DNA from: a virus
Taxonomy: Duplodnaviria; Heunggongvirae; Uroviricota; Caudoviricetes
Virus record (IMG/VR): IMGVR_UViG_3300029935_000001
Coordinates: 1 to 64,000 of that record
Direction: 5' to 3' (one strand)
DNA length: 64,000 nucleotides
The notes beneath the pieces were generated by a model. It ran no database searches, was not told where the DNA came from, and was given only the letters and a program-made list of their open reading frames with translations. The first letter of the stretch is position 1. Each line of letters opens with the position of its first letter. The translations under genes were made by a program, and so were the position numbers. Below, piece after piece: positions 4,967 through 33,452 of the stretch.

Positions 4967-5090
4967 TCCATCGTAGCTCAGCGGTAGAGCCGCGGACTGT
5001 GGGCAAAGTAGATAGGCTACTATCCGGTTCAAGCCCGGTATGCCAAAAGTAATCCGTTGGTCGGAGGTTCGAGCCCTCCCGATGGAGCCA
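4967..5090 (+). tRNA. tRNA-Asn(GTT) with 49-nt insertion inside the anticodon
   Basis: gcgga-CT GT[5001-5049]T AA-tccgt, tccatcg/cgatgga, GCCA. Confidence 0.75.
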
Positions 5091-6040: not shown

Positions 6041-6351
6041 GATTTAAACGAGCCGCCTGATCAGCGGAAACACCAAGCGGAGCACTGTTAGCCATTGTGC
6101 TAGCAGTCACGGGAACTTGGCATCCTGCGTGGCCCGGAGCGCAGGAACCGAATTTAACCTAAGCGCTGAGCGGAGTAATCAGCTTCACAGTGGGCACGAC
6201 GCAAGTGTGGATGACTTGCACGGTTTGGGGAGAAACAAGTAGTGGCGCCGCTATTTTACTGAGCGCAGTTGCGCGAAGCCCAAATTGGTCTTACCGGTAG
6301 ACGCAGGTTCGAATCCTGCCGGGCCCTGCCAAACTAACACAGGATACAATT

Positions 6352-6915: not shown

Positions 6916-6991
6916 AGGATGGTTCCAGCAGTCATTTTACATGCCAGTCAGCGCTCAACTGACATTAAAAACTGAGCACAACCCATCCTGA
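6916..6991 (+). ncRNA. scaffold RNA copy 3 with pseudoknot payload
   Basis: AGGATGG-TTCCAGCAG ... gtcag-CGCTCAA-ctgac (loop GCTCA can pair with TGAGC) ... CCATCCT-GA. Confidence 0.65.
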
Positions 6992-7006
6992 TTTTACAAA
7001 AAGTGG

Positions 7007-7062
7007 TTGACACCAGTGCTCCTACTCTGTATAATAGCTACATACAGTAACGCAACGGAGCA
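7007..7062 (+). promoter_or_regulatory. repeated early sigma70 promoter + leader + RBS cassette (also near 7325, 10264, 13192, 13739, 28712, 37538, 38672)
   Basis: TTGAC-N17/18-TATAAT followed by agctacata(c/a)..gtaacgcaacGGAG. Confidence 0.85.
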
Positions 7063-7066
7063 GTAA

Positions 7067-7697
7067 ATGAATCAAGTCTTTGCTAGCTTGAAAGCGCAAG
7101 CGGTTGCTGAAGTCTCTGCTGAGCTCAGCGGCGCAAGTGCCGAGTTTGCTGCTCGCGTCGAGCAAGTGTTTGCTGAACTGATTGTCAAAAAGTGTGCTGA
7201 CTATGCTGACATGGCTTACAACGCCCGTTGTAAGTATCCTGGCGATTACGTTGCCGAAGCAATGGAGTGCGGGGTTACCGAAGGCGTTACTGCCTGGCGC
7301 GGCTAACGTTTTTCGAGAAAACAGTTGACAAGCAACAAAGTCAACTGTATAATAGCTACATACAGTAACGCAACGGAGCACAAGAAATGATCAAAGAGCT
7401 TGCAGGTATTAAGGTTGGTCAAACTTTTGTTTCGCGCGTGAATGGCACGCAAGTGACCATTACTGCTGTGATGGGACCGTACTTGGTCTACCGCGATAAG
7501 CACGGTTGCTACTTCAACAAAACTCCGGCAGCGTTTGCCAAACAATACAAGTGAGCGAAAAGATCATGGAATATACTGTTATCGTTGCTGGCAACAACCG
7601 CACTTCGTTCACTGCTGCTCAGCTGCATAGCATGCTGAACTATATCACTAGCTTGGTCACCCAAGGCGTTCCGTTCACAGTGACCACGCAAAGCTAA
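7067..7697 (+). CDS. three small early hypothetical ORFs (7067-7306, 7387-7554, 7566-7697)
   Basis: The first two directly follow promoter/RBS cassettes; the third follows the second. Confidence 0.65.
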
Positions 7698-7858
7698 AGG
7701 AACAATATCCACTGTGGGATTAGGCCCTGCTACCAACGGGAATACATAACCGTCTGCTAGGAATGCTGGGCACACAGGATGAGGTGTGAGTCCTTAGCTA
7801 ATGCCTGGATGGTAAGGCGAGTGTTGCGAGCGATACACAGAATCCATCCCAGAACAAT

Positions 7859-7975
7859 GCCGCTGTCGTCTAATTGGTTAGGACGCTAAAAGCGATCCTG
7901 TCACAGGATCCATACAGCACTCAAATTTTCCACTGCTAATGGAGAAATGTTGGTTCGAATCCAACCGGCGGCTCA
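7859..7975 (+). ncRNA. tRNA(GCT)-like RNA with a permuted scaffold inserted between D arm and anticodon arm (copy 4)
   Basis: gccgctg/cggcggc, D arm, GATCCTG-tca-CAGGATC-catacagca, ttcca-CT GCT AA-tggag, T arm TTCGAAT. Confidence 0.7.
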
Positions 7976-8249
7976 GGAGAAAGTAACATGCGTGACAACG
8001 TAAATAAGTTTAAAAGTCGCGAGTACGAGTGGCATCCTCGGCGAAGCTGGAAACGCCGCTACTTGCAAGACCTGAAGAAGCTGTTTTACAGCGAGTAATT
8101 AGATTTTGCTTGTGTATGTGCGCAGACACCATATGTGGTCGATTGTTAAACCAAGCCCGCAATCGACGGACCTGATGTGCGCAGTAGTTTGAAGTTGATT
8201 CAAATCAGCTAGTAGCTTGGGCACTGCTAGCGGCAAGCAAGAAGTATTA

Positions 8250-8381
8250 AGGAAGTTTTCAGCAATCAAATCTTACTAGGAAACTGGTGCCGCAAGGCTT
8301 GGAGGTTCGAGTCCCTCCTGCTGTACCTGGTACGGCAGTGGCGAAATGGCAAACGCGCCGGTTAAGAAAAAGACTTCCTGA
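8250..8381 (+). ncRNA. scaffold RNA copy 5 carrying a circularly permuted Leu-type tRNA body (YrlA-like topology)
   Basis: AGGAAGT-TTTCAGCAA, variable arm, T arm, loop-closed acceptor ctgctgtac/gtacggcag, D arm, ACTTCCT-GA. Confidence 0.75.
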
Positions 8382-8385
8382 TTTT

Positions 8386-8476
8386 GGGTGATTGACTGAG
8401 GCGGTAAAGTGCCTGATTGCTAATCAGAGGCCAGCCAGAAATGGCTGCAAAGGTTCGAATCCTTTATCACCCGCCA
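8386..8476 (+). tRNA. tRNA-Ser(GCT)
   Basis: cctga-TT GCT AA-tcaga, long variable arm, GCCA. Confidence 0.88.
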
Positions 8477-8484
8477 AGAACAAC

Positions 8485-8559
8485 GAAGGGTTGGCCGAAA
8501 AGCGAGGCACCTGCCTGCAAAGCAGGACTATGTGGTGGCAGAATCCACACCCTTCTCCA
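8485..8559 (+). tRNA. tRNA-Cys(GCA), atypical T loop
   Basis: cctgc-CT GCA AA-gcagg, U discriminator TCCA. Confidence 0.85.
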
Positions 8560-8723
8560 CAATAGGATCAACGTAGATGAGAAGATGGGCGTTGATCTTA
8601 AAATACTACTCGACCATTTTCTCCGCAAGTAGCTGTTCACTGCGTATATTATATTGAATGATAGATGAAGTACCCTGCTACAGCGCACTCAGTGCGCTGT
8701 AGCAGCTTAACCCTAAAATTAAC

Positions 8724-18280: not shown

Positions 18281-18399
18281 AGGATGGATACAGCAACTTA
18301 CTCATACTATGAGATTCTACCTGCAGTAACTTAGGGGTAGATAGGGCTGAAGGCAAGCGCACAGCCAGAAAATAACTCAGCGCTCGCAAGCCATCCTGA
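18281..18399 (+). ncRNA. scaffold RNA copy 6 with multi-hairpin payload
   Basis: AGGATGG-ATACAGCAA ... CCATCCT-GA. Confidence 0.65.
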
Positions 18400-19780: not shown

Positions 19781-19813
19781 TGGTCGGGAGTTCGAATCTC
19801 TCCAGGGAGGCCA
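19781..19813 (+). pseudogene. 3' half of the original tRNA started at 18832
   Basis: gggag-TTCGAAT-ctctc cagggag GCCA. Confidence 0.8.
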
Positions 19814-31040: not shown

Positions 31041-31082
31041 AGGTTTGATACCGCAAACCCTTACTCATATCATACAAACCTG
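31041..31082 (+). promoter_or_regulatory. scaffold copy 7 in the 5' UTR of the DUF2828-like gene, abutting the RBS
   Basis: TTGCAA-N17-TACAAT promoter, then AGGTTTG-ATACCGCAA ... CAAACCT-GGAG-N8-ATG. Confidence 0.75.
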
Positions 31083-31093
31083 GAGAACACAAA

Positions 31094-31612
31094 ATGAACA
31101 CTTTTGCACGAGCTGTAATCCGCGAAGCCGAAGATACTGAGAACGTTGGTTTTACTGCCAACGGCGCTGCAACCTTGTTGTCGTCTAAGGACGCGTTCAC
31201 CGACTTGTTCGCAGTGATCGGCTCTTCACGGCGCTCGCCTGAAAATGCCGTCGCGCAGTTCAAGACGTGCTACAAGATCGACCGCCGGCTCGCTCTGCGC
31301 ATCCTTCTATGGGCGCGTGATGCTCGAGGTGGTGCTGGTGAGCGCAATATCTTCCGCCAGTGCGTAGATACGCTGCCCGCCGAAGACAAGCTCACGCTGA
31401 TTAGCTCGGGTAAGATTGAAGAGCTCGGTCGCTGGGACGACTATATCAGGCTCATGATGGATAAGAACAGCCGTGTGGCTCGATCTGCGTCTACTCGTGT
31501 GCTCGAGACCATCAAGAGCGGGAACGCTGCTCAGGCGCTGCTTGATAGGCTTGACACAATGACAGACTCAGAAGCTGCTGCGGCGTTGGCGGACTTACAG
31601 CGGGCAAAATGA
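31094..31612 (+). CDS. DUF2828-like protein, N-terminal fragment
   Basis: T.NGA, DLF, ARD.RGGAGER..FR, GRWDD. Confidence 0.8.
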   Translation: MNTFARAVIREAEDTENVGFTANGAATLLSSKDAFTDLFAVIGSSRRSPENAVAQFKTCYKIDRRLALRILLWARDARGGAGERNIFRQCVDTLPAEDKLTLISSGKIEELGRWDDYIRLMMDKNSRVARSASTRVLETIKSGNAAQALLDRLDTMTDSEAAAALADLQRAK

Positions 31613-32340
31613 TTTTTTAGCATATTCGGTTTGTTTACCCCGGTTCGACCACAATGTGGGCATTTTAGTTCTTCTTTATTAGGCGAACCGGGTGTATGAT
31701 TTCCATTTGTTATTGCTAACAAAACCGAAGCTCGATTTTTAGCAGACCGAGCTTCTAAAATAAAAGGGTCGATGTTAGGGTTATATTTGCATTTCTCACC
31801 GTGAAACCGTTTATAGTTTCCAGGGTCAACTTGTTTGTCACAATGCGGGCACTTTATTTTAGAGGTTTGTTGTCGAGCTTGCGCAATGGATTTCCGGCGA
31901 AGATCTGAGCATGGACCGGACTTATATTTTAAGCCTTGGTTCCACGCAGGCTTTAATGAAGTGGCTAACGCTGCTGCTGCTCTACAACGTGCGTGCTGTT
32001 TTGACGTTAAATTTCGCTTACCTATAACGTCTACTGTCATTCTCGCAAAGGCATAAAGTAATCTATAGTTGTTAGGAATCACTTTAGTAAGAAGCCAGTG
32101 ACAAATATAATGCTCGCGGGCAGTTAGATATACAATATTTTGTTTATCAGAAATCCAAGTAGTGTCTTCGCACAAACATTTAGGCACGACGTGGTGGCCT
32201 TCGGTATAACCCAGCGCTGCCTTAGCTGTTTTCCGAGTTGACGCCCGGGCAGCCGCTCGCCGACATATTTGCTGATACCAACGAAAATATTTTGACTCAG
32301 TATCAGTTTTGCTGTATAATAATGCTATGTAATCGGTCAT
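31531..32340 (-). CDS. HNH homing endonuclease splitting the DUF2828-like gene
   Basis: EGHHVVPKC, LTAREHYICHWLL, AWNQG, CPHC repeats. Confidence 0.85.
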   Translation of the reverse strand: MTDYIALLYSKTDTESKYFRWYQQICRRAAARASTRKTAKAALGYTEGHHVVPKCLCEDTTWISDKQNIVYLTAREHYICHWLLTKVIPNNYRLLYAFARMTVDVIGKRNLTSKQHARCRAAAALATSLKPAWNQGLKYKSGPCSDLRRKSIAQARQQTSKIKCPHCDKQVDPGNYKRFHGEKCKYNPNIDPFILEARSAKNRASVLLAITNGNHTPGSPNKEELKCPHCGRTGVNKPNMLKNHFARCKSANAAAASESVIVSSLSSSA

Positions 32341-32378
32341 AAAACTATTTATGTGGATGCCACGGAAAGGACAATAAA

Positions 32379-33452
32379 ATGAACGTAAAAGCTCAACTAA
32401 AGAAAGAACTGCGCGACATTGTGATGCGCGCCCAAAGATGCGCAAAGTGGATGCCTCGTCAAGGCATTGAAGCTGCTCGTATTCGCTCGCTCTTTGGTAT
32501 GGCCCCGAAGCTGTATCGCAAGATGCTGGTCGAAGGCACTCGGGTTGTTGAGACCCAGATGTGCGCAAAGAACTGGGAAGGCATCACCTATGAGCACGTA
32601 CCGTCGGTGGCTATGGCGCGGTACTCGCGCGCGTTCGCCCGCAATTCGCAAGTGGCATTTCCTGCCTATAAGGCAGCCCTCGAGGCCGGCACTGTGCAGG
32701 CCAAGTCTGCTGCGCTGTTTCCGTACGATGTAGCTCGCACGCTCAAAGGCGGCGACACTACCATCGCCAACGAGCAGTGGAAGGCGCTGCCTAACTACAT
32801 CGACGGCCGTGCCAAGCTCTTCCCAATTATCGACGTGTCTGGGTCCATGTCCTGCCAAGTAAGTGGCTCGGTAACGGCAATGGACATTGCTATCACTCTC
32901 GGACTGTATATCGCTGAGCGCCAAAACAGTGCCCTCAAGGACCTGTTTATGACGTTCGACGACACGCCACGCATGATCTCAGTAGCTGGCTGCTCGTCCT
33001 TCCAGGACCGGTACCGCAAGATCAAAGACGCGCCATGGGGTGGGTCAACTAACTTACAAGCATCGTTTGACCTACTGCTCAAGACCGCAGTAGACAACCG
33101 AGCGGCTCCGGAGGACATGCCCGAATACCTGTTCATCGTGTCCGACATGGAGTTCAACGAAGCGTGCGGCAGTGGGTATTACAGAGCGCGCAAGAGCGAA
33201 ACCAACTATGCCGAGATTGAACGCAAGTATCGCGCCAGCGGGTATCAGCGCCCGAACGTTATCTTCTGGAACGTCAACGCCCGTAACGGTAATATTCAAG
33301 TCGAGGCTGACGAGAACGGCACTGCAATGATCTCGGGGTTCTCTCCAAGCATCCTGCGCCCTCTGCTCAACGCCGAATCGGTAACTCCGCGGCAGATCAT
33401 GGAGGCAGCAGTGATGGTGCCGCGCTACACCGTCGAAGGGCTTACTGCGTAA
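32379..33452 (+). CDS. DUF2828-like protein, C-terminal fragment with vWA domain
   Basis: AKWMPR, VPSVAM, DVSGSM MIDAS, WG.STN, SDMEF, FWN, SGFS. Confidence 0.85.
   Translation: MNVKAQLKKELRDIVMRAQRCAKWMPRQGIEAARIRSLFGMAPKLYRKMLVEGTRVVETQMCAKNWEGITYEHVPSVAMARYSRAFARNSQVAFPAYKAALEAGTVQAKSAALFPYDVARTLKGGDTTIANEQWKALPNYIDGRAKLFPIIDVSGSMSCQVSGSVTAMDIAITLGLYIAERQNSALKDLFMTFDDTPRMISVAGCSSFQDRYRKIKDAPWGGSTNLQASFDLLLKTAVDNRAAPEDMPEYLFIVSDMEFNEACGSGYYRARKSETNYAEIERKYRASGYQRPNVIFWNVNARNGNIQVEADENGTAMISGFSPSILRPLLNAESVTPRQIMEAAVMVPRYTVEGLTA

Follow-up and report, generated by a model that had tools for sequence, protein, structure and literature searches.

A conserved tRNA-shaped phage RNA with a handle-like fifth arm, a candidate Y-RNA-like partner of a Ro60-like protein

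Background

IMG/VR record IMGVR_UViG_3300029935_000001 describes a complete virus of the Caudoviricetes, 323,407 bp long and with terminal repeats, whose first 64 kb (positions 1 to 64,000, hereafter the window) contain at least 25 transfer RNA (tRNA) genes and one permuted transfer-messenger RNA. An element at 7859-7975 of the window has all the arms of a tRNA with anticodon GCU and, in addition, an arm that ordinary tRNAs do not possess. This raises the question of whether the element encodes a decoding tRNA, a tRNA with an intron, or an RNA of a different kind. Here we describe its architecture, its conservation and its genomic association with a gene for a Ro60-like protein. Of these three, we consider the last probable: a tRNA mimic of Y-RNA-like kind, to which the Ro60-like protein binds.

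Results and discussion

The element is a cloverleaf with a fifth arm

As read from the sequence, 7859-7975 forms a complete cloverleaf of acceptor, D, anticodon and T arms, plus a fifth arm which we refer to as the handle. We use 'type A' for a linear handle-bearing tRNA-shaped RNA of this kind. Its parts, all on the + strand, are as follows; counts of homologues refer to the eight type-A records described in the next section.

7859-7975, +, whole type-A RNA, supported by a leave-one-out covariance score, by its fold and by an RNA-library contig (all below)
7859-7865, +, acceptor stem 5' strand, 7 of 7 base pairs with 7966-7972, double changes in all 7 pairs among 8 homologues
7868-7884, +, D arm of tRNA-Glu type (stem GTCT / AGGAC), invariant among 8 homologues
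7885, +, G26, directly 3' of the D arm
7886-7927, +, 42-nt insert, the capped handle, between D arm and anticodon arm (26/27), kept in the RNA contig
7886-7893, +, A-rich segment, fitting the A-rich consensus 5' of X' in free copies
7894-7900, +, handle strand X', GATCCTG (consensus ..ATCCT-G), pairing with 7904-7910
7901-7903, +, 3-nt capping loop TCA, joining X' to X
7904-7910, +, handle strand X, CAGGATC (consensus AGGAT..), 5 of 6 hairpin pairs covarying
7915-7920, +, unpaired conserved motif CAGCAC (family consensus CAGCAA, 163 free copies), its C, G, C and A invariant in 8 of 8 homologues
7928-7944, +, anticodon-type arm (sequence and fold) with 5-bp stem and loop CUGCUAA, anticodon GCU at 7935-7937
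7945-7948, +, variable loop of 4 nt
7949-7965, +, T arm (sequence and alignment), stem GTTGG / CCAAC and loop TTCGAAT
7966-7975, +, acceptor 3' strand, discriminator U (7973), then CA, with no encoded CCA

An earlier note, made from the sequence without database searches, had described an insert between the D arm and the anticodon arm of an otherwise linear tRNA that retains its anticodon arm, with the 3' strand of the inserted scaffold preceding its 5' strand across a 3-nt loop. Each of these points is borne out, as is the claim that the layout is a circular permutation of that at 8250, for X' precedes X in the element and the order is the reverse at 8250-8380. The handle itself (AGGATC / GATCCT-G, spacer CATA, CAGCAC, and CTAAAAGC before X', in permuted order) conforms to the wider handle family considered below.

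The thermodynamic fold has the same five-arm shape (z = -3.05), and the four canonical tRNA arms are all present; the anticodon loop is 7 nt long and has U33 and a purine at 37. We called tRNAs with ARAGORN and searched with covariance and Rfam models (RF00005 for tRNA). ARAGORN calls no tRNA at the element, with or without its intron option, and the Rfam tRNA model matches only the 3' part at 19.6 bits, below the curated gathering score of 29. Deletion of 7886-7927 in silico yields an ARAGORN tRNA(GCU) of 74 nt. When the region 7650-8600 was compared with Rfam at E-values up to 10, tRNA was the sole family matched, and there was no group I intron match for the 42-nt insert. The element thus resembles ordinary phage tRNA genes (RF00005) in its cloverleaf, its T-loop and D-loop consensus and its site inside a phage tRNA array, and differs from them in its 42-nt fifth arm, in scoring under the Rfam threshold and in the lack of fit between anticodon and body type.

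The architecture is conserved, with compensatory changes

A single window protein used as query retrieved no related loci; an alignment was needed as the query. Homologues of the element were then collected by a capped-handle search in the loci fetched via the DUF2828 protein (see below), together with a DNA pattern scan of IMG/VR. The same architecture occurs in eight phage records including that of the window, with one type-A gene per genome. Among them is the cultured Aeromonas phage APT65 (OP491958.1, with the RNA at 84402-84518 on the minus strand), which was also the only match for the element in a blastn search of 50,697 cultured phage records; the RNA is unannotated there. In all seven homologues the insert is present and structured, with a covarying hairpin and the motif CWGCA at the same place. 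The observation named in the earlier note as one that would refute its reading, an insert missing from homologues or lacking structure in them, was thus not made. The element is a genuine, conserved feature.

A covariance model built from the seven homologues without the window recovered the window element at 96.8 bits (E = 2.6e-21), the next match being an ordinary tRNA-Glu at 32.5 bits, so the architecture is not a product of chance. With all eight members in the model, members scored 86-119 bits, other handle-bearing tRNAs 54-62 bits and ordinary tRNAs at most 51 bits. In the model-based alignment, which was fitted to the structure and hence leans towards it, 93.5% of cells are paired, double changes are found in 18 of the 27 pairs, and compensation extends over three helices. 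None of 500 shuffles reached the observed covariation, slid partners were paired in 41-51% of cells, and a plain MAFFT alignment contains the same compensatory changes.

Body type and anticodon disagree

The body is of tRNA-Glu type, as indicated by the D arm (TC-GTCT-A...AGGAC) and the 4-nt variable loop. Among 476 ARAGORN tRNAs in the fetched loci, the D-arm signature is carried by 8 of 13 Glu tRNAs and by one called Gln, and by no other type (0 of 12 Asp, 0 of 39 Gly). The designation tRNA(GCU) in the earlier note therefore stands for the anticodon, and fails for the body if a serine tRNA was meant: the long variable arm of class II tRNAs is missing, the loop measuring 4 nt, so the element is not a serine tRNA. 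A normal tRNA-Ser(GCU) with a long variable arm lies at 8386-8476, as had also been claimed. Given a Glu-type body with GCU, no serine long arm and a normal tRNA-Ser(GCU) close by, an ordinary decoding role for the window copy is unlikely. Across the eight homologues the anticodons are GCU, GUC (three times), UCC, GUU, UUG and one that is ambiguous.

The insert is kept in an RNA-library contig

Four public sequencing runs were searched as assembled contigs. One (X8) is a freshwater metatranscriptome; two others (X1 and X3) are probably DNA and serve for contrast only. X8 contains a 110-nt contig whose extent is exactly 7859-7968; it retains the insert and differs at one position of the hairpin loop. 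A separate 165-nt contig in X8 ends at 7852, and the probable-DNA runs bridge 7852-7859. A joint across the insert, as expected of a spliced form, was seen in none of the four runs, although contigs prove neither RNA ends nor the absence of such a form. These data hint at, and agree with, an RNA that is discrete and unspliced and that begins at the 5' end of the tRNA.

Relatives of the element in the public runs differ from it at only 7902 and 7904, giving a cap GTAT on a 6-bp stem; the 117 nt of the element carry two changes in all, and the 50 nt that follow carry 14. Two further signals in these data were set aside. A 67-nt fold-back contig in X8 (7939-7974 plus an extra C) might be read as carrying a non-templated C, but is equally well explained as an assembly artefact of the T-arm palindrome and was not used; and the depth at 8284-8318 is due to T-arm matches of other organisms, whose ends are loose on either side, and so carries no information on the RNA at 8250.

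The structured region of about 160 nt that immediately precedes the element, 7691-7852, is represented in X8 by the 165-nt contig, at a k-mer depth about 3.4 times that of the element. Neither Rfam nor the approximately 200 fetched loci gave a match or homologue for this region, which is possibly another small RNA.

One handle closes many small phage RNAs, in two topologies

This handle also serves as the closing stem in dozens of small phage RNAs, around payloads that are anticodon arms or permuted tRNA bodies. Its consensus is a helix AG[GA]..../....[CT]CT-G with a spacer of about 3 nt, an unpaired CAGCA and an A-rich run 5' of the 3' strand. Free copies read X (AGGA...), three bases, CAGCAA, payload, A-rich run, X' (...TCCT) and G. 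The window holds several:

8250-8380, +, permuted sibling, with open handle AGGAAGT...ACTTCCT-G around a tRNA body with a 9-bp hairpin sealing the acceptor
870-928, +, free handle RNA with an anticodon-arm-like payload
6916-6990, +, free handle RNA
18281-18398, +, free handle RNA with a larger payload
31041-31082, +, minimal handle copy in the 5' leader of the Ro60-like gene, abutting the GGAG ribosome-binding site

In linear and permuted layouts alike, the point at which the handle branches off lies between D arm and anticodon stem. A permuted form of the very same Glu-type body is found in L193, a 1.5-kb IMG/VR stretch of a 125,709-bp record, in the order X, CAGCAAC, anticodon-type arm, T arm, acceptor closed by GAAA, Glu D arm, X'. 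We flagged 47 free handle RNAs for a T-arm-like hairpin in the payload, and about 30 of them have the look of true permuted handle-tRNAs. Linear forms are rarer than permuted ones. Since the Glu-type body also occurs permuted with a GAAA-closed acceptor, and since about 30 permuted handle-tRNAs exist, the family does not require a free acceptor end, and the sealed acceptor stems argue that it is independent of aminoacylation. No Rfam family matches the handle RNAs, and our literature searches found no description of a handle family.

One locus outside the window shows a different arrangement. At L010:11895-12140, two adjacent handle-bearing tRNAs have a common handle helix (GCAAACT/AGTTTGT); one, of Thr type, bears it in the anticodon loop beside an intact AUGGUAA loop, and the other, of Glu type, bears it at 26/27.

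The handle is linked to a gene for a Ro60-like protein

In the window, the gene whose leader contains the minimal handle is present in two separately framed pieces, split by a homing-endonuclease gene on the opposite strand:

31094-31612, +, Ro60-like protein, N-terminal piece (DUF2828; PHROG 850 positions 1-124)
31531-32568, opposite strand, HNH homing-endonuclease gene, 345 aa
32379-33452, +, Ro60-like protein, C-terminal piece (DUF2828 and DUF7788/vWA; PHROG 850 positions 141-475)

In the close relatives P0003 and P0004 the gene is unsplit. An AlphaFold model of an unsplit relative (90% identical; predicted local distance difference test score, pLDDT, 82) displays a Ro60-like fold: its five best PDB matches are all TROVE/Ro60 chains, and the matches span the whole model length with template modelling (TM) scores of about 0.5-0.6. 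The best of them is 9kop ('Crystal structure of the Trove domain'), which we take to be the protein of Thermus phage phiLo. The relationship is seen by fold search only, as no Ro60 entry was matched when the PDB was searched with a sequence profile, and the window protein is matched by the Pfam model DUF2828 and not by the Pfam model TROVE. A protein of this Ro60 shape occurs in 709 cultured phage records.

We scanned 80 IMG/VR loci, each centred on the gene, and the handle pattern matched 163 times on the gene strand and 9 times on the other. It is present in 65 of the 80 loci, with a 3-nt spacer in 152 of the 163 matches, and many matches lie directly 5' or 3' of the DUF2828 gene. Cultured phages share this arrangement: APT65 has four handle RNAs immediately 5' of the gene (protein UZV39726.1), Listeria phage A511 has three in the gap that precedes gp57 (the DUF2828 gene), and mycobacteriophage Faith1 has three just after gp55, one of these being a permuted tRNA. 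The gene is present in seven of the eight type-A records, the remaining record being a fragment with an estimated completeness of 6%. Of the four type-A records found without recourse to the protein, three hold the gene and the fourth (the record of L005) is that same 6%-complete fragment. The record of L193 also has the gene. In the window, the minimal handle ends at the GGAG before the start codon, a position that suggests autoregulation of the Ro60-like gene.

Two neighbours of these genes may be recorded here. Directly upstream of the Ro60-like gene in the window, 29795-30832 matches PHROG 24943 ('DNA polymerase') and has the GDIDL motif of pol-beta-type nucleotidyltransferases; its product might act on RNA 3' ends. 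In A511, the region upstream of gp57 includes a ROOL-like RNA (L216:1507-2058; E = 7e-17; 87.5 bits, short of the gathering score of 99.1), and the three handle RNAs follow about 640 nt downstream of it, beyond gp59, gp58 and an unannotated tRNA match.

Comparison with known Y RNAs

YrlA-type Y RNAs, which are found in 22 phages, consist of a Ro60-binding stem and a tRNA-like module (Chen et al. 2014, PMC4201824). The element is comparable in being a small RNA with a stem presumed to bind protein (the handle) and a tRNA-like module with T and D arms and an acceptor-like stem. The two are also alike in genomic setting, being encoded in phages, on the same strand as and near a gene for a ring-shaped vWA protein of Ro60 type (HEAT ring plus vWA; in our case a fold predicted by the model). 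In YrlA, however, the RNA ends form the protein-binding stem and the acceptor is closed, whereas the ends of the element lie at the acceptor and its handle is internal and capped; and the YrlA stem replaces the anticodon arm, whereas the element carries its handle at 26/27 and keeps that arm. Paired 5' and 3' ends forming a protein-binding stem are thus absent from the element and present in its sibling at 8250. The conserved motifs differ as well, GNCGAA in YrlA and CAGCA in the handle family, and within 7650-8600 (E up to 10) there was no Rfam Y RNA match. The candidate protein partner of the handle family belongs to Pfam DUF2828, not TROVE. The 'Ro-like' protein of Faith1 is likewise a DUF2828 match and not a TROVE match, and none of the Rfam Y RNA families matches beside its gene; the published phage YrlA set (mycobacteriophage ET08 and others) is therefore not shown to consist of the same RNAs.

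Thermus phage phiLo provides a characterized parallel: the structure of phiRo60 is solved, Yrl1 and Yrl2 are encoded just upstream, and both binding and a complex with PNPase have been shown (PMC12135203). The likeness lies in a phage Ro60 homologue with partner RNAs upstream, which in the present family are candidate partners. Yrl1 and Yrl2 are stem-bulge-stem RNAs with a CGAA motif, for which that paper describes no tRNA body (PMC12135203), in contrast to the element. In Yrn1 of Deinococcus radiodurans and in YrlA, the T and D arms are oppositely oriented relative to the RNA ends (PMC4201824), so two topologies of tRNA-like Y RNA are already known; those RNAs are from different lineages and are thought to have evolved independently, whereas here one Glu body and one handle occur in both topologies. 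In a study of Listeria phages, abundant RNAs upstream of an Rsr-like gene were speculated to be Y RNAs, and the Rsr-like protein, CKA15_055, a homologue of the Ro60-like protein considered here, was detected in purified virions (PMC12282133).

Weighing the explanations

Under the explanation that we favour, the gene would yield a stable RNA of about 115 nt with a tRNA fold, its body derived from tRNA-Glu and its acceptor ends free, these ends presumably being set by RNase P and 3' processing. The fifth arm between nucleotides 26 and 27 is the handle, a helix starting AGGAT followed by the unpaired CAGCA, and would serve as the docking site of the Ro60-shaped DUF2828/vWA protein. The proposal in the earlier note of a structural protein-binding module draws indirect support from the position of handle RNAs next to DUF2828 genes, from the Ro60 shape of the protein model and from the presence of the gene in seven of the eight type-A records. 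The RNA would then act as a partner akin to a Y RNA, presenting a tRNA shape on the protein, perhaps as a bait, decoy or tether for host tRNA-recognising enzymes such as anticodon nucleases or tRNA repair or modification enzymes. A bolder version, which we regard as a long shot, makes the handle an address tag by which complete, CCA-ended tRNA look-alikes are loaded onto a virion-packaged Ro60-like ring, so that baits against host tRNA-cutting defences would be delivered at infection, or else a tag that protects a subset of working tRNAs.

Several observations weigh against Y-RNA-like mimicry. The Ro60-like gene lies 23 kb from the element in the window and is itself split by the homing-endonuclease gene. 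A CCA is encoded in four of the eight homologues. L213, from another phage, holds two linear handle-bearing tRNAs of other body types with full sets of cognate identity elements:

L213, G003:C1:137688-137808, -, handle-bearing Asp tRNA (G73, GUC, C38, loop CUGUCAC)
L213, G003:C1:137069-137192, -, handle-bearing Pro tRNA (C1-G72, A73, UGG)

Judging by these sequences, some handle-bearing tRNAs could be chargeable. There is also the dependence of the covariation figures on an alignment fitted to the structure, and of the RNA evidence on contigs from one true RNA study that covers the element.

These cognate Asp and Pro tRNAs and the encoded CCA ends would suit a working tRNA that keeps its handle, is charged, and decodes or otherwise enters the tRNA cycle, with the Ro60-like protein capturing, protecting or storing it. 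The intact cloverleaf beneath the insert, the free acceptor ends and the retention of the insert in the RNA contig would fit as well. We nevertheless think such a role unlikely, given the Glu-type body with GCU and no serine arm, the normal tRNA-Ser(GCU) at 8386, the variety of anticodons among homologues of one body type, and the permuted siblings with closed acceptor stems. The distance of the gene from the element in the window could instead be taken to mean that the handle has no connection with the Ro60-like protein and acts in processing or stability, for instance as an RNase site or a protective hairpin, in which case the RNA would have another partner. The tight linkage of handle and gene over the 80 loci and in cultured APT65, A511 and Faith1, and the handle copy that overlaps the translation start region of the gene, make this improbable.

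Exact excision of the insert restores a canonical cloverleaf, which raises the possibility that the handle is removed and the halves ligated by phage or host enzymes to give a 74-nt tRNA, the permuted copies being processed through circular intermediates. There is precedent in the red alga Cyanidioschyzon merolae and in archaea, where permuted and intron-containing tRNA genes give rise to normal tRNAs via bulge-helix-bulge cleavage, the permuted genes of Cyanidioschyzon being processed through circular intermediates. As in those genes, a single junction (here 26/27) is the insert site of linear genes and the site of the termini in permuted ones. Unlike those genes, the phage RNAs display neither a bulge-helix-bulge nor a spliced product: a weak helix of four A-U pairs can be drawn at the junctions, but by eye it is not conserved in the homologues, and the joined form is missing from the four runs while the unspliced form is present in the RNA library. 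Moreover, the 42-nt insert lacks an Rfam group I intron match and sits at 26/27 rather than in the anticodon loop; its unpaired CAGCA is conserved to the same degree as in free handle RNAs; the permuted copies seal their acceptors with tetraloops or 9-bp helices, leaving no normal ends; and excision would yield a Glu-type body that bears a serine anticodon. We therefore hold excision to be very improbable. Finally, the phage has other broken and nested tRNA genes, and the lack of an ARAGORN call might suggest a decaying, functionless tRNA gene disrupted by a duplicated or mobile handle segment. This explanation is disfavoured to the point of being barely credible, as the element is kept in eight divergent phages with compensatory changes in three helices, has 2 differences where the adjacent 50 nt have 14, and appears as a discrete contig in an RNA library.

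Other RNA features of the window

The window contains further unusual tRNA-related sequences, which we list as separate observations. Orphan T arms followed by acceptor 3' strands have their T loops at 443, 3234, 4645, 6018, 6308, 9990 and 19791; all except that at 6308 end in CCA, and none has a perfectly matching 5' strand within 400 nt upstream, save that at 19791, which has two distant matches (250 and 335 nt). The tRNA at 2161-2263, with an Ala-type G3-U70 pair, has about 30 extra nt in its anticodon loop; these lengthen the anticodon stem into a long hairpin without the handle motif and are therefore an insert of a different kind. The tRNA at 4967-5087 (Rfam tRNA 51.9 bits) has about 49 extra nt in the anticodon loop, with a T-arm-like hairpin of their own inside. 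At 7003-7060 and 7330-7386 there is a repeated unit, a TTGACA...TATAAT promoter with a conserved leader (agctacatacagtaacgcaacggagc), before two small open reading frames.

Conclusions

The particle formed by Ro60 and its Y RNAs has long been studied, yet what it does is still poorly understood. In the phages considered here, a distant protein of Ro60 shape is accompanied by modular candidate partner RNAs that show anticodon arms or whole tRNA bodies, and one handle serves both topologies, including, as the element shows, a tRNA with free ends. Cultured phages are available for testing, namely Aeromonas phage APT65 for the exact RNA, and Listeria phages A511 and P100 and mycobacteriophage Faith1 for the family. 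If the protein binds the element, phages would have a general means of presenting tRNA shapes on a protein, which would bear on the arms race over tRNA cleavage.
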